Origin: Escherichia coli
GTDB taxonomy: Bacteria > Pseudomonadota > Gammaproteobacteria > Enterobacterales > Enterobacteriaceae
Assembly (NCBI RefSeq): GCF_965641715.1
Contig: NZ_OZ282453.1
Reading direction: 5' to 3' (one strand)
DNA length: 64,000 nt
Below, piece by piece: positions 1 to 59,267 of this stretch; the first letter of the stretch is position 1, and each line of letters starts with the position of its first letter. A program made the translations under genes and the position numbers. A model generated the notes under the pieces. That model was not told where the DNA came from, ran no database searches, and saw only the letters and a program-made list of their open reading frames with translations.

Positions 1-876
1 GTTCTCAAGCCCTGCCTGCCAGTTGTCGACTTTGACACCCAGTCGGCCACTCAAAGGAAAACCTGCATACGGCCAGCTCCAGCGACCATCGCTTACGGTC
101 AATTGTTGACGAGTAATTTGCCACGGCAAATCGAGCAACGGATCGCCGTTATCCCGTGCCAGCACGATCAATTGCCCGCTATTTTCCTGCCAGTCCAGCT
201 CGGCATCCACCAGTGACGGTTCCTGCGGCAAGTTTAACGTCGCAGTAGCATGCCCACTTACAGGAAGTCCATCCGGCACGAGCGGCATAGTAAATTCCCC
301 CACCAGTTTAACCGGCGGCTGATTTTCAAACGCGACGACATCCAGTTCGCTGACTGTAAGTTGTTGCCCTTTCAGCTGGCCTTGAAATTTAACTTTTTCG
401 CCCTGATAACGCAGTTGCTGGATATCAGAGGTTAATGCGAGAGAGAGTTTTCCCTGCCATTCCTGCCAGGGAGAAAAAATCAGTTTATCGATATTGATCC
501 AGGTGTTAGGCAGCATGGACTGCCACTGCGCGAGGGTTTTTGGAGCAGCTGGCGATTGCTCCGTCTGCGGCAATTTCGCCAGACAAGCAGAATCAAGTTC
601 TACCGTGCCGACGTTCAATAACCAGCGGCTGGGATGTGAAAGGCTGGCGTTGGTGATATGCGCAAGCTGACAATCTCCCACCAGATAACGGAGATCGGGA
701 ATGATTAAACCTTTACGCGTAATGCGTGGGCTTTCATCTAATGCAATACGTGTCCCGAGCGGTAGCCAGATGCCCGCCAGCGTGGGAACCCACAGCCCGA
801 GCGTCATCAGCAGCGTCAACGGCACAAGAATAATCAGTAATAACAGCGCGAGAACGGCTTTATATTTACCCAGCAT
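1..876 (-). CDS. ydbH: AsmA-family protein YdbH, 5' part; start codon at 874-876, gene runs off the window start
   Basis: Reverse-strand translation from 876 reads MLGKYKAVLALLLLII..., matching the YdbH N-terminus as I recall it; divergent from ldhA as in K-12. Not in the ORF track because it is truncated by the window edge. Confidence 0.8.
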   Translation of the reverse strand, partial: MLGKYKAVLALLLLIILVPLTLLMTLGLWVPTLAGIWLPLGTRIALDESPRITRKGLIIPDLRYLVGDCQLAHITNASLSHPSRWLLNVGTVELDSACLAKLPQTEQSPAAPKTLAQWQSMLPNTWINIDKLIFSPWQEWQGKLSLALTSDIQQLRYQGEKVKFQGQLKGQQLTVSELDVVAFENQPPVKLVGEFTMPLVPDGLPVSGHATATLNLPQEPSLVDAELDWQENSGQLIVLARDNGDPLLDLPWQITRQQLTVSDGRWSWPYAGFPLSGRLGVKVDNWQAGLEN

Positions 877-1083
877 GGGTAGTTAATATCCTGATTTAGC
901 GAAAAATTAAGCATTCAATACGGGTATTGTGGCATGTTTAACCGTTCAGTTGAAGGTTGCGCCTACACTAAGCATAGTTGTTGATGAATTTTTCAATATC
1001 GCCATAGCTTTCAATTATATTTGAAATTTTGTAAAATATTTTTAGTGGCTTAAATGTGATTCAACATCACTGGAGAAAGTCTT

Positions 1084-2073
1084 ATGAAACTCGCCGTTTA
1101 TAGCACAAAACAGTACGACAAGAAGTACCTGCAACAGGTGAACGAGTCCTTTGGCTTTGAGCTGGAATTTTTTGACTTTCTGCTGACGGAAAAAACCGCT
1201 AAAACTGCCAATGGCTGCGAAGCGGTATGTATTTTCGTAAACGATGACGGCAGCCGCCCGGTGCTGGAAGAGCTGAAAAAGCACGGCGTTAAATATATCG
1301 CCCTGCGCTGTGCCGGTTTCAATAACGTCGACCTTGACGCGGCAAAAGAACTGGGGCTGAAAGTAGTCCGTGTTCCAGCCTATGATCCAGAGGCCGTTGC
1401 TGAACACGCCATCGGTATGATGATGACGCTGAACCGCCGTATTCACCGCGCGTATCAGCGTACCCGTGACGCTAACTTCTCTCTGGAAGGTCTGACCGGC
1501 TTTACTATGTATGGCAAAACGGCAGGCGTTATCGGTACCGGTAAAATCGGTGTGGCGATGCTGCGCATTCTGAAAGGTTTTGGTATGCGTCTGCTGGCGT
1601 TCGATCCGTATCCAAGTGCAGCGGCGCTGGAACTCGGTGTGGAGTATGTCGATCTGCCAACCCTGTTCTCTGAATCTGACGTTATCTCTCTGCACTGCCC
1701 GCTGACACCGGAAAACTACCATCTGTTGAACGAAGCCGCCTTCGATCAGATGAAAAATGGCGTGATGATCGTCAATACCAGTCGCGGTGCATTGATTGAT
1801 TCTCAGGCAGCAATTGAAGCGCTGAAAAATCAGAAAATTGGTTCGTTGGGTATGGACGTGTATGAGAACGAACGCGATCTGTTCTTTGAAGATAAATCCA
1901 ACGACGTAATTCAGGATGACGTATTCCGTCGCCTGTCTGCCTGCCACAACGTGCTGTTTACCGGGCACCAGGCATTCCTGACAGCAGAAGCTCTGACCAG
2001 TATTTCTCAGACTACGCTGCAAAACTTAAGCAATCTGGAAAAAGGTGAAACCTGCCCGAACGAACTGGTTTAA
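1084..2073 (+). CDS. ldhA: D-lactate dehydrogenase (NAD-dependent fermentative)
   Basis: 329 aa ORF MKLAVYSTKQYDKKYLQQVNE... with 2-hydroxyacid dehydrogenase GxGxxG fold (GVIGTGKIG); matches LdhA. Confidence 0.97.
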   Translation: MKLAVYSTKQYDKKYLQQVNESFGFELEFFDFLLTEKTAKTANGCEAVCIFVNDDGSRPVLEELKKHGVKYIALRCAGFNNVDLDAAKELGLKVVRVPAYDPEAVAEHAIGMMMTLNRRIHRAYQRTRDANFSLEGLTGFTMYGKTAGVIGTGKIGVAMLRILKGFGMRLLAFDPYPSAAALELGVEYVDLPTLFSESDVISLHCPLTPENYHLLNEAAFDQMKNGVMIVNTSRGALIDSQAAIEALKNQKIGSLGMDVYENERDLFFEDKSNDVIQDDVFRRLSACHNVLFTGHQAFLTAEALTSISQTTLQNLSNLEKGETCPNELV

Positions 2074-2183
2074 TCTTGCCGCTCCCCTGCAATCCAGGGG
2101 AGCTGATTCAGATAATCCCCAATGACCTTTCATTCTCTATTCTTAAAATAGTCCTGAGTCAGAAACTGTAATTGAGAACCACA

Positions 2184-2606
2184 ATGAAGAAAGTAGCCGC
2201 GTTTGTTGCACTAAGCCTGCTGATGGCGGGATGTGTAAGTAATGACAAAATTGCTGTTACGCCAGAACAGCTACAGCATCATCGCTTTGTGCTGGAAAGC
2301 GTAAACGGTAAGCCCGTGACCAGCGATAAAAATCCGCCAGAAATCAGCTTTGGTGAAAAAATGATGATTTCCGGCAGCATGTGTAACCGCTTTAGCGGTG
2401 AAGGCAAACTGTCTAATGGTGAACTGACAGCCAAAGGGCTGGCAATGACCCGTATGATGTGCGCTAACCCGCAGCTTAATGAACTCGATAACACCATTAG
2501 CGAAATGCTGAAAGAAGGTGCACAAGTGGATCTGACCGCGAACCAGTTAACGCTGGCGACCGCGAAACAGACATTAACTTATAAGCTGGCGGATTTAATG
2601 AATTAA
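2184..2606 (+). CDS. hslJ: Heat-shock lipoprotein HslJ
   Basis: ORF 2172..2606; likely start at MKKVAAFVALSLLMAGC (lipoprotein signal with lipobox cysteine); matches HslJ. Confidence 0.9.
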   Translation: MKKVAAFVALSLLMAGCVSNDKIAVTPEQLQHHRFVLESVNGKPVTSDKNPPEISFGEKMMISGSMCNRFSGEGKLSNGELTAKGLAMTRMMCANPQLNELDNTISEMLKEGAQVDLTANQLTLATAKQTLTYKLADLMN

Positions 2607-2869
2607 TAGCTGCCACAGCTCCCGGCGGCAAGTGACTGTTCGCTACAGCGTTTGCCGTTGGGTAATGCACACATCCCAATCGCCGTACCATCCAGTTGAC
2701 GGGCAACAGAAAGCGAACCGCCGATCATTGCACAATTTGCTTCTCCAATACTGGACATCGACGCTTTTAAACCTGGCGCTACATGCGCCGCAGTCGCCTG
2801 CTGAACAGGTTCACTACTACACGCCGACAACAATAAAGCGGCACACCCTACCCAAAACGCTGCTCGCAT
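2603..2869 (-). CDS. ydbJ: Small lipoprotein YdbJ (DUF333)
   Basis: 88 aa ORF with signal peptide and lipobox (LLLSAC); position between hslJ and ydbK as in K-12. Confidence 0.8.
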   Translation of the reverse strand: MRAAFWVGCAALLLSACSSEPVQQATAAHVAPGLKASMSSIGEANCAMIGGSLSVARQLDGTAIGMCALPNGKRCSEQSLAAGSCGSY

Positions 2870-3142
2870 CTTTTCTTCCTCTGATCTTCAAGCCAAACGA
2901 CACCGCCATAAATAATAGGCAGCACAGAGGGCGGCGTCGAGAGCTGTCCTGCGCGTTGCCCCGCATTTTTACTTTTTTATGGCTATTTTTTTGCCCTCTG
3001 TTTGATCAAAACATTCATTACTCTGATGTGGGGGACACAAAAGCGAAAATGCAGAAGAAAGCCATTTGCTAAAATTGAAGGATTACTACTGGGCGCGCAG
3101 CAATTTCGTGCGCCCCTCATTTGCGCAATGTAAGGGTGTCAT

Positions 3143-6100
3143 ATGATTACTATTGACGGTAATGGTGCGGTTGCTTCGGTGGCGTTTCGCACCAGTGAAG
3201 TTATCGCCATCTACCCTATTACCCCCAGTTCCACGATGGCAGAACAGGCTGATGCCTGGGCCGGAAACGGCTTGAAGAACGTTTGGGGAGACACACCACG
3301 CGTGGTTGAAATGCAGTCGGAAGCGGGTGCTATCGCTACCGTGCATGGCGCTTTGCAGACGGGAGCCCTTTCAACATCGTTTACGTCATCGCAGGGTTTG
3401 CTGCTGATGATCCCGACGCTGTACAAACTGGCAGGCGAACTCACACCGTTTGTCCTGCATGTAGCGGCACGTACCGTTGCCACACATGCACTCTCTATTT
3501 TTGGCGATCATTCCGACGTCATGGCGGTGCGCCAGACGGGTTGCGCGATGTTGTGTGCGGCAAACGTCCAGGAAGCGCAAGACTTTGCTCTCATTTCGCA
3601 CATCGCGACGCTGAAAAGCCGCGTGCCATTTATTCATTTCTTTGATGGTTTCCGTACGTCCCACGAAATCAATAAAATTGTCCCGCTGGCCGATGACACG
3701 ATTCTTGATCTCATGCCGCAGGCCGAAATTGATGCTCATCGCGCCCGGGCGCTCAACCCGGAACATCCGGTGATCCGCGGTACGTCCGCCAATCCTGACA
3801 CTTATTTCCAGTCTCGCGAAGCCACCAACCCATGGTACAACGCGGTCTATGACCATGTTGAACAGGCGATGAATGATTTCTCTGCCGCGACAGGTCGTCA
3901 GTATCAGCCGTTTGAATATTACGGGCATCCGCAAGCGGAACGGGTGATTATCCTGATGGGCTCTGCCATTGGCACCTGTGAAGAAGTGGTTGATGAATTG
4001 CTAACCCGTGGCGAAAAAGTTGGCGTGCTGAAAGTTCGCCTGTACCGTCCCTTCTCCGCCAAACACTTGCTGCAAGCTCTGCCGGGATCCGTACGCAGCG
4101 TGGCGGTACTGGACAGAACCAAAGAACCCGGTGCCCAGGCAGAACCGCTCTATCTGGATGTAATGACCGCACTGGCAGAAGCCTTTAATAATGGCGAGCG
4201 CGAAACTCTGCCCCGTGTCATTGGTGGGCGCTATGGTCTTTCATCCAAAGAATTTGGCCCGGACTGTGTACTGGCGGTATTTGCCGAGCTCAACGCGGCT
4301 AAACCGAAAGCGCGCTTTACGGTTGGTATTTACGATGATGTGACCAATCTGTCACTGCCGTTGCCGGAAAACACCCTGCCAAACTCGGCGAAACTGGAAG
4401 CCTTGTTTTATGGCCTTGGTAGTGATGGCAGCGTTTCCGCGACCAAAAACAATATCAAGATTATCGGTAATTCCACGCCGTGGTACGCACAGGGCTATTT
4501 TGTTTACGACTCCAAAAAGGCGGGCGGCCTGACGGTTTCTCACCTTCGCGTGAGCGAACAGCCGATTCGTTCCGCTTATCTCATTTCCCAGGCTGATTTT
4601 GTTGGCTGCCACCAATTGCAGTTTATCGATAAATATCAGATGGCTGAGCGTTTAAAACCTGGCGGCATTTTCCTGCTCAACACGCCGTACAGCGCAGATG
4701 AAGTGTGGTCGCGCTTGCCGCAGGAAGTTCAGGCCGTGCTAAACCAGAAAAAAGCGCGCTTCTATGTGATTAACGCAGCGAAAATCGCCCGCGAATGTGG
4801 CCTGGCGGCCCGTATTAATACCGTCATGCAGATGGCTTTTTTCCATCTGACGCAAATTCTGCCTGGCGATAGCGCCCTCGCAGAATTGCAGGGTGCGATT
4901 GCCAAAAGTTACAGTAGCAAAGGCCAGGATCTGGTGGAGCGCAACTGGCAGGCTCTGGCGCTGGCGCGTGAATCCGTAGAAGAAGTTCCGTTGCAACCGG
5001 TAAATCCGCACAGCGCCAATCGACCGCCAGTGGTTTCCGATGCCGCCCCTGATTTCGTGAAAACCGTAACCGCTGCGATGCTCGCCGGGCTTGGTGATGC
5101 CCTCCCCGTTTCGGCGCTGCCGCCAGACGGCACCTGGCCGATGGGCACTACACGCTGGGAAAAACGCAATATCGCCGAAGAGATCCCCATCTGGAAAGAG
5201 GAACTCTGTACCCAATGTAACCACTGTGTTGCCGCTTGCCCACACTCAGCTATTCGCGCAAAAGTGGTACAGCCTGAAGCGATGGAAAACGCCCCTGCCA
5301 GCCTGCATTCGCTGGATGTGAAATCGCGTGATATGCGCGGGCAGAAATATGTCTTGCAGGTGGCTCCGGAAGATTGCACCGGTTGTAACCTGTGCGTCGA
5401 AGTTTGCCCGGCGAAAGACCGTCAGAATCCAGAGATTAAAGCCATCAATATGATGTCGCGCCTGGAACATGTCGAAGAAGAGAAAATCAATTACGATTTC
5501 TTCCTCAACCTGCCAGAAATCGACCGTAGCAAACTGGAACGTATTGATATTCGTACATCGCAGCTGATTACACCGCTGTTTGAATATTCAGGTGCTTGCT
5601 CCGGTTGTGGCGAGACGCCGTATATTAAATTGCTGACTCAGCTCTATGGTGACCGGATGTTGATCGCTAACGCCACCGGCTGTTCTTCAATTTATGGCGG
5701 TAACCTGCCCTCTACACCGTATACTACCGATGCCAACGGTCGTGGTCCGGCCTGGGCGAACTCTCTATTTGAAGATAATGCCGAATTTGGCCTTGGTTTC
5801 CGCCTGACGGTCGATCAACACCGTGTCCGCGTGCTGCGTCTGCTGGATCAATTTGCCGATAAAATCCCGGCGGAATTACTGACGGCGTTGAAATCAGACG
5901 CCGCGCCAGAGGTTCGTCGTGAACAGGTTGCAGCTTTACGCCAGCAACTCAATGATGTTGCCGAAGCACATGAACTGCTGCGTGACGCAGATGCACTGGT
6001 GGAAAAATCAATCTGGCTGATTGGTGGCGACGGCTGGGCTTACGATATCGGCTTTGGCGGTCTGGATCATGTATTGAGTTTGACGGAAAACGTCAACATT

Positions 6101-6667
6101 CTGGTGCTGGATACGCAATGCTATTCCAACACCGGTGGTCAGGCGTCGAAAGCGACACCGCTGGGTGCAGTAACTAAATTTGGCGAGCACGGCAAACGTA
6201 AAGCGCGTAAAGATCTTGGCGTCAGTATGATGATGTACGGTCATGTTTATGTGGCGCAGATTTCTCTCGGCGCGCAGCTCAACCAGACGGTGAAAGCGAT
6301 TCAGGAAGCGGAAGCGTATCCGGGGCCATCGCTGATCATCGCTTATAGCCCATGTGAAGAGCATGGTTACGATCTGGCACTCAGCCACGACCAGATGCGC
6401 CAACTCACAGCTACCGGCTTCTGGCCGCTATATCGCTTCGATCCGCGTCGTGCCGATGAAGGCAAACTGCCGCTGGCGCTGGATTCACGCCCGCCGTCAG
6501 AAGCACTGGAAGAAACGTTACTTCACGAGCAACGTTTCCGTCGTCTGAATTCGCAGCAGCCAGAAGTGGCAGAACAGTTATGGAAAGATGCTGCAGCTGA
6601 TTTGCAAAAACGCTATGACTTCCTGGCACAAATGGCCGGAAAAGCGGAAAAAAGCAACACCGATTAA
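3143..6667 (+). CDS. ydbK: Pyruvate:flavodoxin/ferredoxin oxidoreductase
   Basis: 1174 aa ORF with paired 4Fe-4S ferredoxin motifs (CTQCNHCVAACP, CTGCNLCVEVCP) and a TPP-binding region; matches YdbK. Confidence 0.97.
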   Translation: MITIDGNGAVASVAFRTSEVIAIYPITPSSTMAEQADAWAGNGLKNVWGDTPRVVEMQSEAGAIATVHGALQTGALSTSFTSSQGLLLMIPTLYKLAGELTPFVLHVAARTVATHALSIFGDHSDVMAVRQTGCAMLCAANVQEAQDFALISHIATLKSRVPFIHFFDGFRTSHEINKIVPLADDTILDLMPQAEIDAHRARALNPEHPVIRGTSANPDTYFQSREATNPWYNAVYDHVEQAMNDFSAATGRQYQPFEYYGHPQAERVIILMGSAIGTCEEVVDELLTRGEKVGVLKVRLYRPFSAKHLLQALPGSVRSVAVLDRTKEPGAQAEPLYLDVMTALAEAFNNGERETLPRVIGGRYGLSSKEFGPDCVLAVFAELNAAKPKARFTVGIYDDVTNLSLPLPENTLPNSAKLEALFYGLGSDGSVSATKNNIKIIGNSTPWYAQGYFVYDSKKAGGLTVSHLRVSEQPIRSAYLISQADFVGCHQLQFIDKYQMAERLKPGGIFLLNTPYSADEVWSRLPQEVQAVLNQKKARFYVINAAKIARECGLAARINTVMQMAFFHLTQILPGDSALAELQGAIAKSYSSKGQDLVERNWQALALARESVEEVPLQPVNPHSANRPPVVSDAAPDFVKTVTAAMLAGLGDALPVSALPPDGTWPMGTTRWEKRNIAEEIPIWKEELCTQCNHCVAACPHSAIRAKVVQPEAMENAPASLHSLDVKSRDMRGQKYVLQVAPEDCTGCNLCVEVCPAKDRQNPEIKAINMMSRLEHVEEEKINYDFFLNLPEIDRSKLERIDIRTSQLITPLFEYSGACSGCGETPYIKLLTQLYGDRMLIANATGCSSIYGGNLPSTPYTTDANGRGPAWANSLFEDNAEFGLGFRLTVDQHRVRVLRLLDQFADKIPAELLTALKSDAAPEVRREQVAALRQQLNDVAEAHELLRDADALVEKSIWLIGGDGWAYDIGFGGLDHVLSLTENVNILVLDTQCYSNTGGQASKATPLGAVTKFGEHGKRKARKDLGVSMMMYGHVYVAQISLGAQLNQTVKAIQEAEAYPGPSLIIAYSPCEEHGYDLALSHDQMRQLTATGFWPLYRFDPRRADEGKLPLALDSRPPSEALEETLLHEQRFRRLNSQQPEVAEQLWKDAAADLQKRYDFLAQMAGKAEKSNTD

Positions 6668-6702
6668 ATGCTCTGGATAAGGATTATCCAATTCTAAAAA
6701 AA

Positions 6703-6733
6703 AGCCCGGACGACTGTTCGGGCTTGTCTTTTT
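6703..6733 (+). terminator. Rho-independent terminator after ydbK
   Basis: Hairpin agcccgga-cgactgtt-cgggct followed by tgtcttttt. Confidence 0.7.
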
Positions 6734-7032
6734 ATATGTTGGAAAATCAGTGGCAATGCAATGGCCCAACAGAAAATAAAATCTGTGACAATAAAGGCAT
6801 ATAACCCGCGCAGAATAACTCATAGAAAATTAAAAGTATAATTTTTATTTTGTATGTATTATCTTCGATACATTCACCAGACTTATTATCATTTCAGAGG
6901 AATTATTTGATTAAGGTTTTACTTAAGGCGTAACAAATGATATTTATCGGCTAACTGAACTTCTCCTTTAGGATGTTTTCACTCCCCGAAATGGGGATAA
7001 AAGGCAAATAAAATAACTAAAGGATTTATTCA

Positions 7033-8166
7033 ATGAAAAGCAAAGTACTGGCACTTTTAATTCCTGCCCTGCTCGCCGCAGGTGCTGCACATGCAGCCGA
7101 AGTTTATAATAAAGACGGCAACAAATTAGATCTGTATGGCAAAGTTGATGGCCTGCATTATTTTTCTGATAATTCAGCGAAAGATGGCGACCAGAGCTAT
7201 GCGCGTCTGGGTTTTAAAGGCGAAACCCAAATTAACGATCAACTCACTGGCTACGGTCAATGGGAATACAATATTCAGGCAAACAACACTGAATCTTCAA
7301 AAAACCAGTCATGGACCCGTCTGGCATTTGCCGGACTGAAATTTGCAGATTACGGTTCTTTCGATTACGGACGTAATTATGGCGTAATGTACGACATCGA
7401 AGGCTGGACCGATATGCTGCCTGAATTTGGCGGTGACTCTTATACCAATGCAGACAACTTTATGACTGGTCGTGCCAATGGCGTCGCGACTTATCGTAAT
7501 ACTGATTTCTTCGGTCTGGTAAATGGTCTGAACTTCGCGGTGCAGTATCAAGGTAACAACGAAGGTGCCAGTAATGGTCAGGAAGGCACCAACAACGGAC
7601 GTGATGTTCGCCATGAAAACGGTGACGGCTGGGGTCTTTCCACAACATATGATTTAGGCATGGGCTTTAGCGCTGGTGCGGCATACACCTCTTCTGACCG
7701 CACCAATGACTAGGTTAACCATACTGCGGCGGGTGGTGATAAAGCAGACGCGTGGACTGCTGGGCTAAAATACGATGCTAACAATATTTACCTGGCAACC
7801 ATGTATTCAGAAACGCGTAATATGACCCCGTTTGGCGACAGCGATTATGCTGTTGCAAACAAAACCCAGAACTTTGAAGTCACTGCACAGTACCAGTTTG
7901 ATTTTGGTCTGCGTCCGGCAGTCTCTTTCCTGATGTCTAAAGGCCGTGACCTGCACGCTGCCGGTGGTGCAGACAACCCGGCAGGTGTTGATGATAAAGA
8001 TCTGGTTAAATACGCCGATGTTGGCGCGACTTACTATTTCAATAAAAACATGTCCACTTATGTTGACTATAAAATCAACCTGTTGGATGAAGATGACAGT
8101 TTCTACGCTGCCAACGGCATCTCTACCGATGATATTGTCGCTTTAGGTCTGGTTTATCAGTTCTAA
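7033..8166 (+). pseudogene. ompN: Outer membrane porin OmpN interrupted by an in-frame amber codon (TAG at 7711-7713)
   Basis: ORFs 7033..7713 and 7801..8166 are one reading frame; porin signal peptide [21 protein letters not shown] and C-terminal ...LGLVYQF; the frame continues ...[40 protein letters not shown]... across the stop. Confidence 0.8.
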
Positions 8167-8174
8167 ATCCTCCT

Positions 8175-8199
8175 GCCCGCTGTTATGGCGGGCTTTTTC
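8175..8199 (+). terminator. Rho-independent terminator after ompN
   Basis: Hairpin gcccgc-tgttatg-gcgggc followed by ttttt. Confidence 0.75.
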
Positions 8200-8225
8200 T
8201 GCTTATTCTTCCTCCTTTGATCTAA

Positions 8226-8741
<516 letters not shown>

Positions 8742-8748
8742 CACTAAC

Positions 8749-8773
8749 GCCCGCACATTGCTGCGGGCTTTTT
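8749..8773 (+). terminator. Rho-independent terminator after uspF
   Basis: Hairpin gcccgca-cattgc-tgcgggc followed by ttttt. Confidence 0.75.
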
Positions 8774-8916
8774 GATTCATTTCGCAAATGTGCTGACATT
8801 TTCCCCTCTAATCCGTACCATACACGCCACAGTTTTTATATCAGATTTCTTATGCTGGGCGTTCCGGCATGACGCATACTCTTCTGATGCCATATAACGA
8901 ATTGAGTCGCTTTTAA

Positions 8917-8970
8917 ATGTCGCAAAATCAAGAAATTAGCAAGAAAGAACAATACAATCTGAACAAGTAA
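8917..8970 (+). pseudogene. ttcC: ttcA 5' remnant (ttcC-like) left at the int-distal prophage junction
   Basis: Reads [17 protein letters not shown] and shares the 26-bp core aagaaagaacaatacaatctgaacaa (8941..8966) with the ttcA start at 53887..53912. Confidence 0.85.
8941..8966. repeat. att core, int-distal junction
   Basis: Exact 26-bp repeat of 53887..53912. Confidence 0.85.
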
Positions 8971-9067
8971 GGGTAAAAATCACAACTATCTGACGAACAA
9001 TGTTTTTATAATTTTTTCAACATGTTAGACAGGATGAACATCTACAATAAAGCACAATAATCTACAC

Positions 9068-9120
9068 TTTTTTTGCCCCATTTTTGCCCCTTTTACGGCC
9101 TTTTGTCCCATTTTTGCCAC
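9068..9120. repeat. Tandem TTTTTGCCCC-like decamers near the int-distal att (candidate Int arm-type sites)
   Basis: tttttgcccca tttttgcccc ttttacggcc ttttgtccca tttttgccac; related copies lie next to the other att (53819..53840). Confidence 0.5.
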
Positions 9121-9307
9121 AGTAAAAATCTATAACTAATCAATCTGTGATCTGCAATTTGCGCCCATGAATTCTTTCCAATAGAATCAGTTCCGGCTGG
9201 AATCATTAAATACCCCCACAGTCGAAAGTTCCCTAGCCAACTGCCGCCGTTCTTACATATGACGTACTGCGGCTATGTTTTTCAATCTGTAGCTGTGCTG
9301 GTGAATT

Positions 9308-9637
9308 ATGAGCAATCTGAATCCATGCATGACGTGTGGTGCCTGTTGTGCATTTTTCCGCGTCTCTTTTTACTGGGCCGAAGCCGATGATGCTGGCGGT
9401 ACTATCCCTGCAAGGCTCACAGAACAAATATCCCCTTTTCACCGATGTATGAGCGGTACCAATCAGAAAAATCCCCGCTGTGTCGCTCTGGCAGGCACTC
9501 CGGGCAAAAATGCCTGCTGCACAATATATGACAATCGTTCGTCCACATGCAGAGAATTCGCCATGTCTGGTGAGAACGGAGAAGCCAATGAGGCGTGCAA
9601 CAGAGCAAGGGCTAAATATGGGCTGGACCCGCTATAA
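9308..9637 (+). CDS. Cysteine-cluster protein (CxxCxxCC, YkgJ-like putative Zn/Fe-binding domain)
   Basis: 109 aa ORF with CMTCGACC motif and further cysteines; lies just inside the prophage boundary. Confidence 0.5.
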
Positions 9638-9914
9638 ATATACGACAATTGTAAAGCCCGACTGTTGTAACAGTCGGGCTTCATTTATTACAGCTTCTCT
9701 GCTTTTTTATTCTGTGAAACCTGGTTCATCTGGCCACACAATATCCGGTGCTACTGATGTATCAACACGGTTCAGCAACACCCGATACTTTTTCCAGGTT
9801 GTTACCAGACTCACATTCGTTCATTAATATGTCCTGTGATTTGCGTGCGGTGAGGTAGCCTTTTCCCAACCTCACCATCATCCGGCAATTTGTATTTATC
9901 ACAAACGGCCTGTA

Positions 9915-12317
9915 TCAGTTGTCTGTTGCACCAACCATACCCGCAAATTTGAGCCATTGTCCTGATGGACTTCTGTTACCGCGGTAGTGATAAACAAGGA
10001 TTGCATTTGTTACTCCACCATAGTCAGCTTTATGTGATGTGGTTAAGCGAATTGTATAATCACCATCGGGCAGGTTAAAAACTTCAATTACAGTCCCTGC
10101 TAATTCAACCGCTCCAAACCCCGTTATATTGTTGATGCTGCCCGCATTGAATCCCATCATATCGCCAAAACCAATCCAGTACTTTTTGCTGAACGCACCA
10201 TTTGACCTCAGGTGGTTAATAAATGTGGACATACTCATGCCCATTTCGCCGCCAGTTATGGCTGATGTACGTACCGAAATACTTGGCAGAGCACTACTCT
10301 TCACATAAGAGCTCAGAAGATTTATGACTTCTGTTTTCGTATAAGCATTAACGTTAGCCGCAGTCAACGTTATATCCGCAGTGCCATCAAACTTCACACC
10401 AGCAATTTCCCTTGCAGTCTGCAATTTCGTGGCACTGGCTGCGTTACCCGTTGTATCCTGATTGCCTGCCGCATTCACCCCCGGGATCAAATCTTTTACT
10501 GTATAAATCTGCGCCCAGTCCGACTCAAACCCATACTCATCCCGTGAGGAACGATAAAACAGCCCACCATTTTTATAATTGGCCCTGATTTGCAACGTCC
10601 GGCAACTTCCACCCCCTGTATAGAAGTTTGCAACAATATAGCTGCTGCCTGTCCGGGTGACATTGTATGCACCAGATTTGGCATTCCACGGAACGCCTCC
10701 CTCTGACTCTGCGTGCACACCGGACGATCCAAGAGCAAAAGCAGAGACATCTGCAGCGGACAGCCTGATGTCTGATTTCAATGCCTTACCATTCACCTTA
10801 CGACCAGATGGAACCCGGTCATTTGCATTATCATTCACCGCTTTCACCGCCATTGGTGTTGCCGCCAGCGATTCACTGTCACTGTCCGTGGCACTGCTGA
10901 GCTGTACCACCCCCTTTCTCGTCGTGCTCGCATCCTCTAGCGCCACGGCAGATGCAATATCCTCTGCCCGTTTTGCTGCTGTCTCGGCACGCGTTGCTGC
11001 AGATTCCGACGTACTTTTGCTCTGAGCTGCCGCTGTCGCACTACCAGCTGCCTCTGTCGCCTTCGTGGATGCCGTCGTGGCACTGACCTTCGCCTCTGAC
11101 GCCTGTCTTACCGCCTCATCTTTTGAAGCAGACGCCGATGATGCTGATGACGCCGCCGAACTGGCGGACGATGCGGCTGCCGTTTCTGAGGCTCCTGCGC
11201 GGGTTTCCGACGCTTTCGCATTCGTCTCAGATGTCTTCGCTGCGGAAGCAGAACTCGCAGCTGCAGTGGCCTGTTCAGTGGCTTCGCCAGCCTTCGTTGT
11301 GGCTGTTGAAGCGGACGATGCAGCGCTTTCTGCCGATTTTCCGGCGGCAGCGGCACTGGCTACAGCCTCCCCTGCCTTCACTGATGCCTCACGGGCCGAT
11401 GATGCAGCCGCGGTTTCTGAGCCTGCCGCAGCTGAGGCACTCTGTCCCGCTGCCGTTTCAGAAGACCTGGCGTTCGTCTCGGACGTTTTTGCCGCTTTCG
11501 CGGAATTGCCTGCCGCTGTTGCCGAGGAAGCTGCGCTACTGGCGCTCGAGGATGCGTTCGTTTCTGATGATTTTGCCGCCTCTTTTGAAGCCGCCGCATC
11601 CCGGGCTGAGGTGGCAGCTTCTGACGCTTTCGTAGTCGCGGTGGATGCAGAAGTGGCTGCTGATTGTTGTGACGCTGCCGCATTCGTTTCTGACGTTTTC
11701 GCGGCACTGGCACTGGTAGCTGCCGCGCTTTTTGAGGACTCTGCAGCGGCAGCACTTTTTGATGCTTCAGTGGCCTTTGTTGATGCCGTTCCTGCGCTGG
11801 AAGTCGCTGACTGAGCCGACGACGCGGCCTGTCCGGCTGACGTGCTGGCTGCGCGTGCTGAGTCCGCAGCATCAGTCGCATGGGTTGCCGCCTCACGGGC
11901 TGATGTGCTGGCATCACTGGCTGACTTCTTCGCGGCTGCCGTGTTCTGTGCCACCACGGACGCGTTACGCGCCACCTCTTCCACCATCAGCTCAAAACGG
12001 CGCAGTGCCTCCGGACGGGCATCATCCTCCGTCATGGCACCGAGAAAATCATTCAGCGTACCGGGTCGGGAATCTTCATACACGGTGATGGTCCCGGCAT
12101 GTGACGGCGGGAATCCTTCCACCAACAGAATAACGCTGTACTGACCGTACTCAACGTCCATGCTGTAACGCCCGGCTTCATCCGGATTTTCTGAGGCCAG
12201 CGTGTTCACCACCACCGTGGTACTGTTACGTTTTGCTTTCAGCTGGATTGTGCAGTTCTGTACCGGTTTTCCTGTGCCGTCTTTCAGTACACCTGAAATC
12301 TTTACTGCCATATTCAC
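9915..12317 (-). CDS. stf: Phage side tail fibre protein (Stf-like) with long Ala/Ser/Thr-rich repeat region
   Basis: 800 aa; N-terminus MAVKISGVLKDGTGKPVQNCTIQLKAKRN... typical of lambdoid prophage tail fibres; no tail-fibre assembly gene seen downstream. Confidence 0.85.
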   Translation of the reverse strand: MNMAVKISGVLKDGTGKPVQNCTIQLKAKRNSTTVVVNTLASENPDEAGRYSMDVEYGQYSVILLVEGFPPSHAGTITVYEDSRPGTLNDFLGAMTEDDARPEALRRFELMVEEVARNASVVAQNTAAAKKSASDASTSAREAATHATDAADSARAASTSAGQAASSAQSATSSAGTASTKATEASKSAAAAESSKSAAATSASAAKTSETNAAASQQSAATSASTATTKASEAATSARDAAASKEAAKSSETNASSSASSAASSATAAGNSAKAAKTSETNARSSETAAGQSASAAAGSETAAASSAREASVKAGEAVASAAAAGKSAESAASSASTATTKAGEATEQATAAASSASAAKTSETNAKASETRAGASETAAASSASSAASSASSASASKDEAVRQASEAKVSATTASTKATEAAGSATAAAQSKSTSESAATRAETAAKRAEDIASAVALEDASTTRKGVVQLSSATDSDSESLAATPMAVKAVNDNANDRVPSGRKVNGKALKSDIRLSAADVSAFALGSSGVHAESEGGVPWNAKSGAYNVTRTGSSYIVANFYTGGGSCRTLQIRANYKNGGLFYRSSRDEYGFESDWAQIYTVKDLIPGVNAAGNQDTTGNAASATKLQTAREIAGVKFDGTADITLTAANVNAYTKTEVINLLSSYVKSSALPSISVRTSAITGGEMGMSMSTFINHLRSNGAFSKKYWIGFGDMMGFNAGSINNITGFGAVELAGTVIEVFNLPDGDYTIRLTTSHKADYGGVTNAILVYHYRGNRSPSGQWLKFAGMVGATDN

Positions 12318-12375
12318 CCCACAAAAAAGCCCGCCTGAACCGGCGGGCTGTCATAACACTGTGTTACCTGGCTAA

Positions 12376-12975
12376 TCAGAATTTATAACCGACACCCACG
12401 ATGAAACCGTCAGTGCGCCAGTCACCACTGCCGGAGCCTTCATAAGCGACATCAATGGCCACGGATTCGGTCGGGTTAAACTGCACGCCAGCCCCCCACG
12501 CCAGAGACGTGTTGCTGTGGCGACCGTCATCACTTCCGGTCAGCACGTCGTGCGTTTTCCCCTTGTTATCAGTTACGCGGAGATAATCCCCGGAAAAAGT
12601 CGACACACGGCTGTAAGCCACACCCGCCATCGCATACGCGCTGAACCATTCATTCACGCGCACAGACGGCCCCGCCATCACGCTGAACCAGCGGTTACGC
12701 ACGGAATCTTCATGCCAGCGGGTATCGCTGTAACGGGTCAGCTGGCGATTCTTGTCTCCTGCATAGCTGAACGACGTCACCATCCCCAGTGTGTCCGTAA
12801 ACTCATAACGGTATTTCACGTTAATCCCGTTCAGATCATCGCTGCCGGGGACGTTCGTCGAGGCATGAAGATAGCCCGCGCTCAGCGTGGACTGATGTTC
12901 AGACGCCCATGCAGGCGCACAGGATGCGGCCAGACAAATGGCTGCGGACAAAATGGCGGCATAAAGTTTACGCAT
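12376..12975 (-). CDS. lom: Outer membrane protein Lom (Ail/Lom family)
   Basis: 199 aa with signal peptide and beta-barrel C-terminus ...GFIVGVGYKF; position after J as in lambda. Confidence 0.92.
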   Translation of the reverse strand: MRKLYAAILSAAICLAASCAPAWASEHQSTLSAGYLHASTNVPGSDDLNGINVKYRYEFTDTLGMVTSFSYAGDKNRQLTRYSDTRWHEDSVRNRWFSVMAGPSVRVNEWFSAYAMAGVAYSRVSTFSGDYLRVTDNKGKTHDVLTGSDDGRHSNTSLAWGAGVQFNPTESVAIDVAYEGSGSGDWRTDGFIVGVGYKF

Positions 12976-51851: not shown

Positions 51852-52078
51852 GCGCAGCCATAAAGCTCACAGGAGAAAAACCAGTGCTATACACAAAAGT
51901 CAAACCATGTCCGTTTTGTGGTTGTCCATCAGTAACGGTGAAAGCCATTTCAGGATATTACCGCGCAAAGTGTAACGGATGCGAATCCCGAACTGGCTAT
52001 AGTGGAAGTGAAAAAGAAGCACTCGAAAGATGGAATAAACGAACTACTGGAAATAATAATGGAGGTGTTCATGTATAA
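51842..52078 (+). CDS. lar: Lar/RalR-like restriction alleviation protein
   Basis: Small protein with zinc-finger CPFCGC...CNGC; position between exo and xis as in Rac. Confidence 0.65.
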
Positions 52079-52259
52079 AATTACCGCCACTATTGAAAAG
52101 GAAGGTGGCACTCCTACTAAATGGACAAGATATTCAAAATCTAAACTAACGAAATCAGAATGCGAAAAAATGCGCTCAGGTAAAAAAGAAGCAGGCGTTT
52201 CCAGAGAGCAGAAAGTAAAACTGATAAATTTTAATTGCGAGAAACGTCAGTCCTCGTGA
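52059..52259 (+). CDS. YdaC-like small protein
   Basis: ORF 52002..52259 with probable internal start ([17 protein letters not shown]...); Rac gene order. Confidence 0.4.
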   Translation: MEVFMYKITATIEKEGGTPTKWTRYSKSKLTKSECEKMRSGKKEAGVSREQKVKLINFNCEKRQSS

Positions 52260-52358
52260 ATTGCATTGTATTCAAATTAAAACTTCATAGCTGATTATTA
52301 ATAATCAACATCGGGCGTCAATTTCAGTCTAACATTGGCGCCTGCCAGAGGTGATGCG

Positions 52359-52574
52359 ATGGCACAAGTAATCTTTAATGAAGAGTGGATGGTTGAATAC
52401 GGCCTGATGCTTCGCACTGGTCTGGGGGCCAGACAAATTGAAGCATACCGCCAGAACTGTTGGGTGGAGGGCTTCCACTTCAAACGAGTATCTCCTTTAG
52501 GTAAGCCAGACAGCAAACGAGGGATTATCTGGTACAACTATCCAAAGATAAATCAGTTTATCAAAGATTCATGA
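52359..52574 (+). CDS. xis: Excisionase-like protein (Rac Xis/YdaQ-like)
   Basis: 71 aa [43 protein letters not shown]... immediately upstream of int. Confidence 0.7.
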
Positions 52575-52575
52575 T

Positions 52576-53811
52576 ATGTCTAAATTACCAACAGGTGTCG
52601 AGATTAGAGGTAGATACATTCGCATCTGGTTCATGTTTCGAGGAAAACGATGTCGGGAAACATTAAAAGGCTGGGAGATTACAAACAGTAATATTAAAAA
52701 GGCCGGAAATTTAAGAGCGCTGATAGTTCATGAAATAAACTCCGGTGAATTTGAGTATTTAAGACGTTTTCCCCAGTCCAGCACTGGGGCAAAAATGGTG
52801 ACAACGAGAGTCATAAAAACGTTCGGGGAGCTTTGTGATATCTGGACAAAAATTAAAGAGACAGAGTTAACAACAAACACAATGAAGAAAACGAAATCAC
52901 AATTAAAAACACTCAGAATAATAATTTGTGAAAGTACCCCGATATCACATATTCGTTATAGCGATATCTTAAACTACCGGAATGAACTGCTGCATGGAGA
53001 AACGCTTTACCTGGATAATCCAAGATCCAACAAAAAAGGAAGAACCGTGCGCACAGTTGATAACTATATCGCCCTGCTCTGTTCGCTGTTACGTTTTGCG
53101 TATCAGTCGGGATTTATATCAACCAAACCATTTGAAGGAGTAAAAAAATTACAGCGAAACAGAATAAAGCCTGATCCGTTATCTAAAACAGAATTCAATG
53201 CATTAATGGAAAGTGAAAAAGGACAGAGCCAAAACTTGTGGAAATTTGCCGTTTACTCAGGACTTCGTCACGGGGAACTGGCAGCTCTGGCGTGGGAGGA
53301 TGTGGATCTCGAAAAGGGAATAGTGAATGTCAGAAGAAACCTGACGATACTTGATATGTTCGGTCCCCCAAAAACAAATGCCGGGATCCGGACAGTAACA
53401 CTACTGCAGCCTGCTCTTGAAGCACTGAAGGAGCAATACAAACTGACCGGACATCATCGCAAAAGCGAAATCACCTTTTATCATAGGGAGTACGGCAGAA
53501 CCGAAAAGCAAAAACTGCATTTTGTTTTCATGCCCAGGATGTGTAACGGAAAACAGAAACCTTATTACTCGGTAAGCAGTTTGGGGGCAAGGTGGAATGC
53601 AACAGTAAAACGTGCTGGTATTCGCCGCCGTAATCCGTACCATACGCGGCATACTTTTGCCTGCTGGCTGTTGACGGCAGGAGCGAACCCGGCATTTATA
53701 GCCAGCCAGATGGGGCATGAAACTGCGCAGATGGTGTATGAAATTTACGGTATGTGGATTGATGACATGAACGACGAACAGGTAGCCATGTTGAATGCGC
53801 GGTTATCGTAG
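52576..53811 (+). CDS. int: Tyrosine site-specific integrase (IntR-like)
   Basis: 411 aa; C-terminal catalytic region with HxxR and Tyr (...YHTRHTFACWLL...MGHETAQMVYEIY); adjacent to the att core in ttcA. Confidence 0.93.
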   Translation: MSKLPTGVEIRGRYIRIWFMFRGKRCRETLKGWEITNSNIKKAGNLRALIVHEINSGEFEYLRRFPQSSTGAKMVTTRVIKTFGELCDIWTKIKETELTTNTMKKTKSQLKTLRIIICESTPISHIRYSDILNYRNELLHGETLYLDNPRSNKKGRTVRTVDNYIALLCSLLRFAYQSGFISTKPFEGVKKLQRNRIKPDPLSKTEFNALMESEKGQSQNLWKFAVYSGLRHGELAALAWEDVDLEKGIVNVRRNLTILDMFGPPKTNAGIRTVTLLQPALEALKEQYKLTGHHRKSEITFYHREYGRTEKQKLHFVFMPRMCNGKQKPYYSVSSLGARWNATVKRAGIRRRNPYHTRHTFACWLLTAGANPAFIASQMGHETAQMVYEIYGMWIDDMNDEQVAMLNARLS

Positions 53812-53818
53812 TTGCAAA

Positions 53819-53840
53819 GTTTGCCCCCAATTTGCCCCAT
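53819..53840. repeat. Two TTTGCCCC-type decamers next to the int-proximal att (candidate Int arm-type sites)
   Basis: gtttgccccc aatttgcccc; same motif family as 9068..9120. Confidence 0.5.
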
Positions 53841-53862
53841 TTAGTACCAGAGAACTGAAATA

Positions 53863-54798
53863 ATGCAAGAAAATCAAAAGAATACGAAGAAAGAACAATA
53901 CAATCTGAACAAATTACAAAAACGCCTGCGTCGTAACGTGGGCGAAGCCATTGCTGACTTCAATATGATTGAAGAAGGCGATCGCATCATGGTTTGCCTC
54001 TCCGGGGGTAAAGACAGCTATACCATGCTGGAGATTCTGCGCAATTTGCAGCAAAGCGCGCCAATCAATTTTTCGCTGGTGGCTGTTAACCTCGATCAAA
54101 AGCAACCGGGCTTCCCGGAACACGTTCTGCCCGAGTATCTTGAAAAGCTGGGCGTTGAGTACAAGATTGTTGAAGAGAACACTTACGGTATCGTGAAAGA
54201 GAAGATTCCAGAGGGCAAAACCACTTGCTCACTGTGTTCTCGCCTTCGTCGCGGTATTCTTTATCGTACCGCAACGGAACTGGGGGCGACGAAGATCGCG
54301 CTGGGTCACCATCGTGACGATATCCTGCAGACGCTGTTCTTAAATATGTTCTACGGCGGCAAGATGAAAGGTATGCCTCCGAAACTGATGAGCGATGATG
54401 GCAAACATATCGTTATTCGTCCGCTGGCCTACTGCCGCGAGAAAGATATTCAGCGATTTGCCGATGCAAAAGCGTTCCCGATTATTCCGTGCAACCTGTG
54501 CGGTTCACAGCCTAACCTGCAACGTCAGGTGATTGCTGACATGTTGCGTGACTGGGATAAACGTTATCCAGGGCGTATCGAGACGATGTTCAGCGCGATG
54601 CAGAATGTGGTGCCGTCGCATCTGTGCGATACCAACCTGTTCGATTTCAAAGGCATCACCCACGGTTCTGAAGTGGTTAACGGGGGTGATCTGGCGTTTG
54701 ATCGCGAAGAGATCCCACTACAACCGGCGGGCTGGCAGCCAGAAGAAGATGAAAATCAGTTGGATGAGTTACGGCTGAATGTGGTTGAAGTGAAATAA
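53863..54798 (+). CDS. ttcA: tRNA 2-thiocytidine(32) synthetase
   Basis: 311 aa with PP-loop SGGKDS and CxxC motifs; the first 8 codons are prophage-derived (see att). Confidence 0.96.
53887..53912. repeat. att core, int-proximal junction (inside the ttcA 5' end)
   Basis: Exact 26-bp repeat of 8941..8966. Confidence 0.85.
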
Positions 54799-54845
54799 CC
54801 AGGATAGCGCCCGATGCGCAAGCGTATCGGGCTACTCTTATGGAG

Positions 54846-54878
54846 GCCGGATAAGACGCGGCCAGCGTCGCATCCGGC
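54846..54878. repeat. REP (repetitive extragenic palindromic) element
   Basis: gccggataagacgcggccagcgtcgcatccggc, the typical E. coli REP palindrome. Confidence 0.75.
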
Positions 54879-54926
54879 AATCCCGAATAAGATGTTTACT
54901 CTTGCACCCGGCAATTCAACATTTCA

Positions 54927-56300
54927 TTATTTTAATAACCGCACCCGGCACGTTTTTCCTTTAATCTTCCCGCCCTGTAACTGTTTCCATGCTTTATGAG
55001 CAACAGCCTGACGGACCGCGACATAGACATGCGCCGGATGCACGGCGATTTTGCCAATATCTGCGCCATCAAGCCCGATATCTCCTGTCAGTGCACCTAA
55101 TACATCACCCGGGCGCATTTTGGCTTTTTTCCCGCCATCGATACACAACGTTGCCATTTCTGCTTCCAGCGTCACAATGGAACTATTAGCTGGCGGCGTT
55201 TGCCAGTTAAGTTTTATCTGCAACATGTCAGAAATGATATTGGCCCGCTGTGCTTCTTCCGGAGCACAGAAACTGATCGCCAGACCGCTATTTCCTGCAC
55301 GAGCTGTACGACCGATGCGATGTACATGAACTTCAGGGTCCCACGCCAGCTCAAAGTTCACCACCAGCTCAAGCGATTTAATATCCAGACCACGCGCAGC
55401 AACATCAGTCGCGACCAGTACACGGGCGCTACCGTTAGCAAAACGTACCAGGGTCTGATCGCGATCGCGTTGCTCCAGATCGCCGTGTAATGACAATGCA
55501 CTTTGCCCTACTTCATTCAGCGCGTCGCAGACAGCCTGGCAATCTTTTTTGGTATTGCAAAACACCACGCAAGAGGATGGCTGATGCAAGCTTAATAACC
55601 GTTGCAACAGAGGAATTTTGCCTTTGCTGGATGTCTCATAAAATTGTTGTTCAATGGGTGGCAAAGCATCTGTTGAGTCAATTTCAATCGCCAAAGGATC
55701 GCGTTGCACTCGTCCGCTGATTGCAGCGATGGCTTCCGGCCAGGTTGCCGAAAACAGAAGCGTCTGTCGAGATGCAGGCGCAAAACGGATGACATCATCA
55801 ATGGCATCGCTAAATCCCATATCCAGCATGCGGTCGGCCTCATCCATCACCAAAGTATTCAGCGCATCCAGTGATACCGTGCCTTTTTGCAAGTGATCCA
55901 GCAAACGACCCGGCGTTGCCACGATAATATGCGGCGCATGTTGCAACGAATCACGCTGCATACCGAACGGTTGACCACCGCACAACGTCAAAATTTTGGT
56001 ATTTGGCAGAAAACGCGCCAGCCGACGCAATTCACCTGCCACCTGATCCGCCAGTTCACGCGTAGGACACAGCACTAAAGCCTGGGTTTGAAATAGCGAC
56101 GCATCAATTTGCTGTAACAAGCCGAGGCCAAAAGCCGCCGTTTTGCCGCTGCCGGTTTTCGCCTGCACGCGAACATCTTTTCCGGCAAGGATCGCCGGAA
56201 GCGCGGCGGCCTGCACCGGCGTCATGGTTAAATAACCCAACTCATTAAGGTTCGTGAGTTGGGCGGGAGGCAAAACATTCAGGGTAGAAAAAGCGGTCAC
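54927..56300 (-). CDS. dbpA: ATP-dependent RNA helicase DbpA (DEAD-box)
   Basis: 457 aa with Walker A AKTGSGKTAAF, DEAD box, SAT and HRIGRTAR motifs. Confidence 0.96.
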   Translation of the reverse strand: MTAFSTLNVLPPAQLTNLNELGYLTMTPVQAAALPAILAGKDVRVQAKTGSGKTAAFGLGLLQQIDASLFQTQALVLCPTRELADQVAGELRRLARFLPNTKILTLCGGQPFGMQRDSLQHAPHIIVATPGRLLDHLQKGTVSLDALNTLVMDEADRMLDMGFSDAIDDVIRFAPASRQTLLFSATWPEAIAAISGRVQRDPLAIEIDSTDALPPIEQQFYETSSKGKIPLLQRLLSLHQPSSCVVFCNTKKDCQAVCDALNEVGQSALSLHGDLEQRDRDQTLVRFANGSARVLVATDVAARGLDIKSLELVVNFELAWDPEVHVHRIGRTARAGNSGLAISFCAPEEAQRANIISDMLQIKLNWQTPPANSSIVTLEAEMATLCIDGGKKAKMRPGDVLGALTGDIGLDGADIGKIAVHPAHVYVAVRQAVAHKAWKQLQGGKIKGKTCRVRLLK

Positions 56301-56329
56301 AATCTATTCTCGTGGTCATCGACGCAAAG

Positions 56330-56503
56330 TTAGCAGGCGCGTATCCTCGCAGATCTACGCTCACGATGCGACAATTTAATCGGTTCTTCATCGGGTGGTG
56401 GGTCAGGCATGGGTTGCGGGCGAGGGATCGGATCGGGCACTGGAACAGGATCGCCAGGAATCGGTTCAGGGACAGGAATTTGCAAATAAATAAGTGTCGT
56501 CAT
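56330..56503 (-). CDS. Hypothetical small proline-rich protein (57 aa)
   Basis: ORF MTTLIYLQIPVPEPIPGDPVPVPDPIPRPQPMPDPPPDEEPIKLSHRERRSARIRAC with GGAGGG RBS; not in the ORF track (short). Confidence 0.4.
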   Translation of the reverse strand: MTTLIYLQIPVPEPIPGDPVPVPDPIPRPQPMPDPPPDEEPIKLSHRERRSARIRAC

Positions 56504-56777: not shown

Positions 56778-57782
<1,005 letters not shown>

Positions 57783-59247: not shown

Positions 59248-59267
59248 GCCGCGGATGCGTCTCGAGA

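Follow-up and report, generated by a model that had tools for sequence, protein, structure and literature searches.

An intact ykgJ allele in the cargo slot between att and the tail-fibre genes of a Rac-family prophage in Escherichia coli ttcA

We report that the open reading frame at positions 9308-9637 (+) of a 64,000-nucleotide stretch of Escherichia coli DNA (contig NZ_OZ282453.1; hereafter the window) is an intact allele of ykgJ carried by a prophage. We consider it probable that this gene, whose product is likely an Fe-S or zinc protein, is part of a compact end module, made up of an upstream hairpin block, ykgJ, its terminator and a convergent tfa gene, and that the module occupies the cargo slot which separates the attachment site from the tail-fibre genes in a Rac-family prophage of 44.9 kb, inserted in ttcA. 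Taken by itself the gene is ordinary: its family and the kind of cargo slot it occupies are both known, and RefSeq has already named it. The window copy nevertheless serves as an intact reference for a sequence found again and again, in broken form, at the effector ends of lambdoid prophages, Stx prophages among them, in pathogenic E. coli. The upstream block at those effector-carrying ends is a landing pad for further phages, and the intact copy reveals the points at which cargo is swapped, namely a breakpoint at codon 38 and a junction at position -128. It also leads us to suggest a phage origin for the chromosomal ykgJ locus, EcsR2 sRNA included, which would be the fossil of a prophage and the replacement for an ancestral gene that was deleted.

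Results

The prophage and its boundaries

A 26-bp sequence (AAGAAAGAACAATACAATCTGAACAA) is found at 8941-8966 and again, as an exact direct repeat, at 53887-53912. From these two att cores we place the prophage at 8967-53886, where it is integrated in ttcA as a full-length relative of the cryptic Rac element. Window positions 1-9128 are 98.5% identical to the K-12 segment running from ydbH through ompN-uspF-ttcC together with 160 bp of the Rac prophage end, and positions 51896-59841 are 99% identical to K-12 ralR-rcbA-xisR-intR-ttcA-dbpA. An origin of the window in another Escherichia species was rejected on the strength of these flanking identities. The integrase lies at the right end of the prophage and ykgJ lies 342 bp inside the left, int-distal end, a placement that agrees with a preliminary description of this DNA, which had put the gene just inside that boundary.

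At the left junction the native 5' end of ttcA is left orphaned as 17 codons and a stop (8918-8971, +; ATGTCGCAAAATCAAGAAATTAGC followed by the core and GTAA), which corresponds to K-12 ttcC and points into the prophage, toward ykgJ. The replacement 5' end of ttcA, supplied by the phage and different from the native one, starts at 53863. The Rac-type att arm extends over 8967-9128, the point at which homology to the K-12 Rac end stops. We note that TTTTGCCCC, TTTTGTCCC and TTTTACGGCC motifs are repeated at about 9068-9125, 100-160 bp from the att core and within the segment common to the K-12 Rac end, and regard them as candidate arm-type sites for the binding of integrase or Xis.

Beyond ykgJ, and convergent with it, lies a C-terminal remnant of tfa (9707-9823, -) that includes a 35-codon ORF (9707-9814). 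It was recognized by a PF02413 (Caudo_TAP) match on the 35-aa product of an identical locus (L011), by the RefSeq label "tail fiber assembly protein, partial" and by a partial Rfam IS009 match. It is followed by an 800-aa side tail-fibre gene with Ala/Ser-rich repeats (9915-12317, -), assigned from its ORF, its RefSeq annotation and its homology to K-12 stfR (93% identity over 10824-12565), and the earlier placement of the gene between the att repeat and the tail-fibre gene is thereby borne out. The tfa gene is cut to its last 35 codons in the window, in L011 and in strain PEC41, and the sequence differs from that of most relatives beyond 9798; most relatives have an intact 195-aa tfa at the position of the remnant. 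A 48-codon ORF (9811-9957, -) overlaps the end of the 800-aa tail-fibre gene.

Several features of the flanking chromosome were observed in passing. The ompN gene (7033-8166) has an in-frame premature stop at 7711-7713, and the two resulting ORFs (7033-7713 and 7801-8166) share a frame and total 1,134 nt, as in intact ompN, so that it appears to be a nonsense pseudogene; at the same locus of O157, ompN is frameshifted. The sRNA EcsR1 has been placed in the uspF-ompN spacer (Raghavan et al., 2015), and from this published location it is expected at window 8167-8305, beside the prophage boundary. On the other side, a 3.6-kb segment with no K-12 counterpart (59841-63442) lies between smrA and the mcaS/abgR side; its products, judged by their translations, are an MFS-type efflux pump (504 aa), an HlyD/EmrA-like adaptor (343 aa) and an AraC-type regulator (271 aa).

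An intact member of the YkgJ family

The gene begins with an ATG preceded, 5 nt upstream, by the ribosome binding site GGTGA, and encodes a 109-aa protein with the motif C7-M-T-C10-G-A-C13-C14. The CxxCxxCC protein of this length announced in the preliminary description is therefore real, on the evidence of the ORF, the motif and a full-profile match to PF03692. That match came from a Pfam profile search, which the same description had recommended as a check: "CxxCxxCC, putative zinc- or iron-chelating domain" (PF03692) was the sole family found, above its cut-off (E=2.8e-11; 44.4 bits against 23), with residues 6-98 of the protein covering positions 1-85 of the 85-position profile. In eight near-identical genomes RefSeq names the product "YkgJ family cysteine cluster protein". 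The window protein keeps all eight cysteines (C7, C10, C13, C14, C58, C71, C81 and C97) that do not vary across 41 homologues from Enterobacterales. This is no chance ORF, since the identical protein is recorded in 523 assembly blocks and its gene has a dN/dS of 0.10 against the chromosomal allele. The function had been given as unknown; the protein is in fact no orphan, being an allele of a gene widespread in E. coli.

A deep-branching allele of the chromosomal gene

In 4,985 of 5,426 complete E. coli genomes ykgJ lies between ecpE and yagU, as it does in K-12 (b0288). The K-12 protein is the closest full-length relative of the window protein, with 104 of 109 residues identical (95%; substitutions I59V, K75D, V92E, V93A and T107D), and the next is that of Escherichia whittamii, at 91%. 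The likeness to the K-12 gene takes in the length of 109 aa, the CxxCxxCC motif and all conserved cysteines, the upstream block, the ribosome binding site and the terminator, and both copies are then followed by a convergent tfa remnant. The window copy differs in that it resides in a prophage at ttcA, not at the ecp locus, and in that it has no dinI remnant upstream and a weaker upstream hairpin. The homology between the two loci is not confined to the coding sequence: it covers window 9182-9650, starting 127 bp upstream of the gene and ending past the stop codon, and against loci of the E24377A type it carries on through the terminator hairpin, where the stem shows compensatory changes.

At the DNA level the window and K-12 genes are 90.9% identical, and their differences are mostly synonymous (dS=0.36, dN=0.036, dN/dS=0.10, as pairwise values that leave the branch unspecified). 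This dS is about 25 times that between the K-12 and E24377A genes (0.014). A phage-borne ykgJ from a dinI-type prophage (L210) constitutes a third deep lineage, with dS=0.77 and dN=0.043 (dN/dS about 0.05) against the window gene and a dS of 0.45 against K-12. The pattern of substitution marks the window gene as an intact, deep-branching allele of the E. coli-type ykgJ that has evidently been kept under purifying selection.

ykgJ as prophage cargo

The preliminary description had named the presence of the gene at this position in prophage-free strains as the finding that would speak against a prophage origin. An empty site of 755 bp was reconstructed by joining the flanks on the uspF and ttcA sides through one att core, and it was searched for in the 5,426 complete E. 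coli genomes. A single place covering at least 80% of the query was found in 2,486 of them, a count that is in itself compatible with short insertions because the search may join pieces up to about 880 bp apart. The best 12 matches, however, were single pieces with 100% coverage and up to 99.6% identity, in which only uspF and ttcA were annotated, and none of these 12 had ykgJ between the two genes. Conversely, the window-type copy of ykgJ was present in eight of the 5,426 genomes, with phage tail genes adjoining it in all eight; most of these are ETEC-type isolates from pigs, and their DNA is 99.8-100% identical. Seven of the eight also carry the ykgJ of the ecp locus; in the eighth, PEC41, the prophage copy is the sole ykgJ. 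Among the 523 assembly blocks that record the identical protein, all ten contexts that were inspected read nifJ-ompN-uspF, ykgJ, tfa-tail fibre. Given the absence of the gene from the empty sites inspected and the phage tail genes beside the window-type copy in all eight genomes, the gene is supported as prophage cargo in the slot between att and tfa/stf, and not as a chromosomal gene of this position. Its "moron position", as it had been called, gains support from these empty sites and from the other cargo found in the same slot of related prophages. The same description had also suggested checking whether the gene travels with this prophage type in other genomes. It is not tied to one prophage type: it accompanies an att-proximal end module (ykgJ and tfa), and the prophage body behind that module varies. 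The rarity of the intact copy and its loss from most related phages indicate that it is dispensable to the phage.

Two sets of matches were discarded as evidence of mobility. A full-length match in "Acinetobacter phage MD-2021a" has aceF, fhuA, guaB, glmM and recJ as its context and is a chromosomal contig, and the plasmid matches are F-prime plasmids or megabase records, that is, segments derived from the chromosome. In one pig isolate, PEC422 (L225, 7457-9975), ISEc8 of the IS66 family is inserted between the terminator of the prophage ykgJ and tfa.

The same slot in related phages

The sequence around the window gene recurs in related phages, mostly in truncated form. The ttcA-site prophages of O157:H7 and O145 have window 8700-9420 in common, at about 90% identity, and then continue into nleC. 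The same 5' fragment of ykgJ is present in Stx1 and Stx2 phages, VT1-Sakai among them, where it is frameshifted and broken at window 9420, in codon 38, with dinI before it and nleC or a tail fibre after it; in VT1-Sakai this fragment was deposited as ORF H0002, "similar to E. coli K12 YkgJ", and its block and 5' ykgJ are 78% identical to window 9185-9420. A prophage at yecE has the order dinI-ykgJ'(70 nt)-espW/nleG-tail fibre, and in phage 1720a-02 only codons 75-109 of ykgJ are left, adjoining the tail fibre. Full-length copies do occur in the IMG/VR prophage contigs L210 and L158, in the order lom-stf-tfa'-ykgJ-dinI. The truncated relics share with the window gene the slot between att or dinI and the tail-fibre genes, but the copies in Stx phages are cut at codon 38 and followed by nleC or other effectors, whereas the window gene is complete and has neither dinI nor effectors beside it. 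Between the same block and tfa, then, related phages hold nleC, espW/nleG or nothing, and ykgJ is one of several alternative cargoes of this interval, intact copies being in the minority. Comparison of these sequences shows related phages to have truncated ykgJ and to have exchanged its 3' part for type III effector cassettes.

The window gene resembles the morons and the exchangeable effector locus of lambdoid phages (nleC, espW/nleG, lom) in its int-distal position, its orientation opposite to the late operon, its own terminator and its variable presence. It differs from them in encoding no virulence effector or surface protein and in duplicating a housekeeping-like gene of the host. Three further IMG/VR contigs (L126, L133 and L173) contain, downstream of lom-stf and with a left flank other than dinI, an apparently frameshifted ykgJ-like sequence with 66% protein identity, possibly a fourth, decaying phage-borne lineage.

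Recombination at the block upstream of ykgJ

A conserved block precedes ykgJ at 9182-9284 (+), as delimited by alignment to K-12 at -127 to -25, by junctions in IMG/VR contigs and by predicted folds. Window 9182-9307 aligns to K-12 -127 to -1, and the corresponding 309-bp region of Stx phages aligns to K-12 -193 to +114. The block overlaps the region of "attB-in-PP_2", a 96-bp sequence that Nakamura et al., 2021 (PMC8112680) described as a site where lambda-like phages insert themselves within other prophages; those authors proposed that the spacer sequence had passed from the chromosome to the prophage. With homology starting at -127, the window contains about 59 to 96 of the published 96 bp, depending on how these are placed. 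No phage was found integrated at the block, between 9128 and 9308, in the window or in ten related loci.

An exact 26-mer of the block occurs in about 120 IMG/VR viral contigs, in which the left flanks, all of which join at -128, fall into five or more types (dinI and no fewer than four others), while the right flanks are of more than 20 types that diverge between -70 and -33, and left and right types are mixed. The homology of the window begins exactly at this recurrent -128/-127 junction. A ttcA-site prophage of O157:H7 strain 7.1_Anguil (L002, 4470-4730, compared with window 9120-9420) is a mosaic inside the block, window-like on the att side and VT1-Sakai-like, with the frameshifted ykgJ', on the gene side, followed by nleC; this two-sided likeness points to recombination within the block. 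The distribution of flanks across these contigs shows the block to behave as a recurrent recombination junction.

Terminator, hairpin and expression

The ykgJ cassette ends in a predicted intrinsic terminator (9654-9691, +) with a 12-bp stem, a loop of 4 and the tail CATTTATTAC, a strong fold (-24.1 kcal/mol, z = -4.4) and the positional homologue of the terminator of chromosomal ykgJ. Upstream, the block has a second hairpin. In phages that carry dinI, about 95 bp of it (K-12 -128 to -33) lie directly 3' of the dinI stop codon and end in a hairpin and U-run, from which we take the block to be the 3'UTR and terminator of dinI. This hairpin covaries between E. coli and E. whittamii, where its fold is strong (z about -3.8 to -3.9). 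In the window the hairpin (9242-9273), with its U-run, stands 35-66 nt upstream of the ykgJ ATG, and it is weakened (z = -0.8).

A search of the interval from att to the ykgJ ATG gave no sigma-70 consensus promoter. The depositors of VT1-Sakai put dinI and ykgJ' under a single SOS-box promoter, whereas the window has no dinI. The window ykgJ may be transcribed by read-through from the promoter of the orphaned ttcA, or from some other upstream promoter, through the weakened hairpin; read-through is plausible because the orphaned ttcA promoter is on the same strand and points inward, with only the weakened hairpin between.

Discussion

What the window gene may do in a lysogen

By analogy with better characterized proteins, YkgJ is likely a small Fe-S or zinc-binding protein. 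The flagellin lysine methyltransferase FliB has a CX4CX3CC motif that binds one oxygen-sensitive [4Fe-4S] cluster, as well as eight conserved cysteines, and its authors liken the motif to PF03692; DpdM, a phage preQ1 methyltransferase of the DUF3109 family, has been described as a YkgJ homologue. By these published descriptions, FliB and DpdM share with YkgJ an N-terminal cysteine cluster of the CxxCxxCC kind, but YkgJ consists of the cysteine-cluster domain alone. We know of no methyltransferase activity for YkgJ. The window protein had no match among the PADLOC defence-system models, no meaningful match in NCBIfam and no solved relative in a PDB sequence search, and gave one weak match of 30 residues in PHROGs (E=0.023). 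An AF2 model built from an alignment of 41 sequences was of low confidence (pLDDT 68), and a Foldseek search of the PDB with it returned no fold match, only noise at E>6. The sole phenotype on record for K-12 ykgJ comes from a TraDIS study, which linked the gene to biofilm fitness and its deletion to filamentation.

We therefore picture the prophage gene as follows, in conditional terms. Transcripts from the ttcA promoter, or from another promoter, would run past the weakened hairpin into ykgJ; the CxxCxxCC cluster of the product would bind a metal cluster, as the related motif of FliB does; and the lysogen would receive a second dose of YkgJ from its prophage, or its only YkgJ in a strain such as PEC41.

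Alternative readings

Several other readings deserve to be weighed against that of an intact prophage-borne allele in a compact end module. The gene could be an inert passenger, an undecayed relic of an ancestral phage end module with no role in the lysogen, whose intactness would only reflect the recent spread of one clone. The predominance of truncated relics in related phages fits such a history, as do the restriction of the intact allele to eight of 5,426 genomes, nearly identical and mostly of pig ETEC type, the lack of a detected upstream promoter and the additional ecp-locus copy in seven of those eight. We nonetheless regard it as distinctly unlikely, in view of a dN/dS of 0.05-0.10 sustained over a dS of 0.36-0.77, and this also between two phage-borne lineages, together with the retention of every invariant cysteine, the intact ribosome binding site and terminator, and the exact protein in 523 assembly blocks. 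Recent capture, in which the source of the prophage's ykgJ and flanks would be the ecpE-ykgJ-yagU locus of E. coli, or that of a close relative, is also unlikely, if a little less so. It is in keeping with the position of K-12 YkgJ as the closest full-length relative, ahead of that of E. whittamii, with the homology of both flanks and with the direction of transfer that Nakamura et al., 2021 (PMC8112680) put forward for attB-in-PP_2. But a dS some 25 times that between K-12 and E24377A implies an event that is neither recent nor within the species, and the chromosomal locus is itself flanked by degraded dinI and tfa in phage order. One conceivable route of capture, in which a prophage residing in the ecpE-ykgJ spacer excised aberrantly, was rejected because it is the 3' end of ykgJ, and not the upstream spacer, that faces the tail-fibre genes.

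It is also conceivable that the DNA counts for more than the protein, if the block and the ykgJ sequence let other phages integrate, as a secondary attachment site (attB-in-PP_2), or link lambdoid prophages for the exchange of cargo by homologous recombination. Nakamura et al., 2021 (PMC8112680) described phages that integrate into a 96-bp sequence derived from this region, and the mixed left and right flanks of the IMG/VR contigs, the coincidence of the recurrent -128 junction with the start of window homology, and the two-sided likeness of the O157 ttcA-site prophage, to the window on the left of the block and to VT1-Sakai on its right, all speak for such a role. We give this reading a limited chance as the main explanation: the window has no integrated phage, its copy starts at -127 and may miss part of the 96 bp, its hairpin is degraded, and purifying selection on the coding sequence is left unexplained. 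A role of the DNA is in any case compatible with the preferred reading of an intact allele in an end module.

The chromosomal ykgJ locus as a possible prophage fossil

The comparison with phages casts the chromosomal gene in a different light. The ecpE-ykgJ spacer of K-12 contains a degraded dinI, detected by tblastn as DinI residues 29-55 and 65-81 (E=1e-4 to 1.5e-6), and the intact dinI-ykgJ of phage contig L210 is collinear with K-12 over 639 nt at 83% identity. On the other side of the gene, in the ykgJ-yagU spacer and on the opposite strand, lies a degraded tfa, to which an intact tfa (L006) aligns over 114 nt (74.6%, E=1.5e-18) and which PGAP labels, in several genomes, as "tail fiber assembly protein, frameshifted, partial". 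This tfa-remnant region of K-12 is Rfam IS009, the sRNA EcsR2, which has been published as a derivative of a degraded phage tail-fibre gene. IS009 is also matched in part by 9753-9823 (-), within the tfa remnant of the window, at 41.8 bits (E=5e-8), short of the gathering score of 117; this match ties the chromosomal sRNA to phage tfa. The chromosome thus carries dinI', block, ykgJ, terminator and tfa' in the order and orientation of phages in which these genes are intact.

A second line of evidence comes from homologues at another site. The ykgJ homologues of Klebsiella, Enterobacter, Citrobacter R56, Salmonella arizonae, Kosakonia and E. albertii have common flanks, which are not those of E. 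coli, E. whittamii, C. braakii and K. indica; their syntenic site is ompW-yciC, with a ykgJ ortholog of 134 aa between the two genes. In the ompW-yciC spacer of E. coli only the last 29 codons of this ortholog are left (tblastn 93.5%, E=3.6e-18), as the stump LPPLYKDMLFHTRPDAATRGLTRVQLPAN followed by a stop (K-12 NC_000913.3, about 1313689-1313781; L224), which PGAP annotates as a partial YkgJ-family gene. The ompW gene is a phage attachment gene.

From these sequence comparisons we lean somewhat towards the view that chromosomal ykgJ is domesticated phage cargo and the ecp locus (dinI', block, ykgJ, terminator and tfa'/EcsR2) the fossil of a lambdoid prophage end. A phage-borne lineage would have replaced the ompW-yciC ortholog, cut to 29 codons in E. 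coli, and the window prophage would keep the living form of the module. The presence of intact genes in phages and of fragments in the chromosome argues for transfer from phage to chromosome, which would reverse the direction that Nakamura et al., 2021 (PMC8112680) proposed for attB-in-PP_2. The opposite direction may hold for where the gene first came from, but it leaves the dinI and tfa remnants unexplained. If domestication is the correct reading, the origin of EcsR2, attB-in-PP_2 and the ykgJ' relics at effector loci, previously separate observations, would be joined, and ykgJ would constitute a clean case in which a phage replaced a host gene with a foreign homologue. It would also give a rationale for work on the biochemistry of YkgJ.

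Among E. coli genomes sampled in a spread listing, none showed a clean ecpE-yagU junction free of the entire module, and genomes without ykgJ appear to miss the wider region too. In E. whittamii the block likewise accompanies ykgJ, which there lies 1.6 kb from the 3' end of icd, a phage attachment hotspot.
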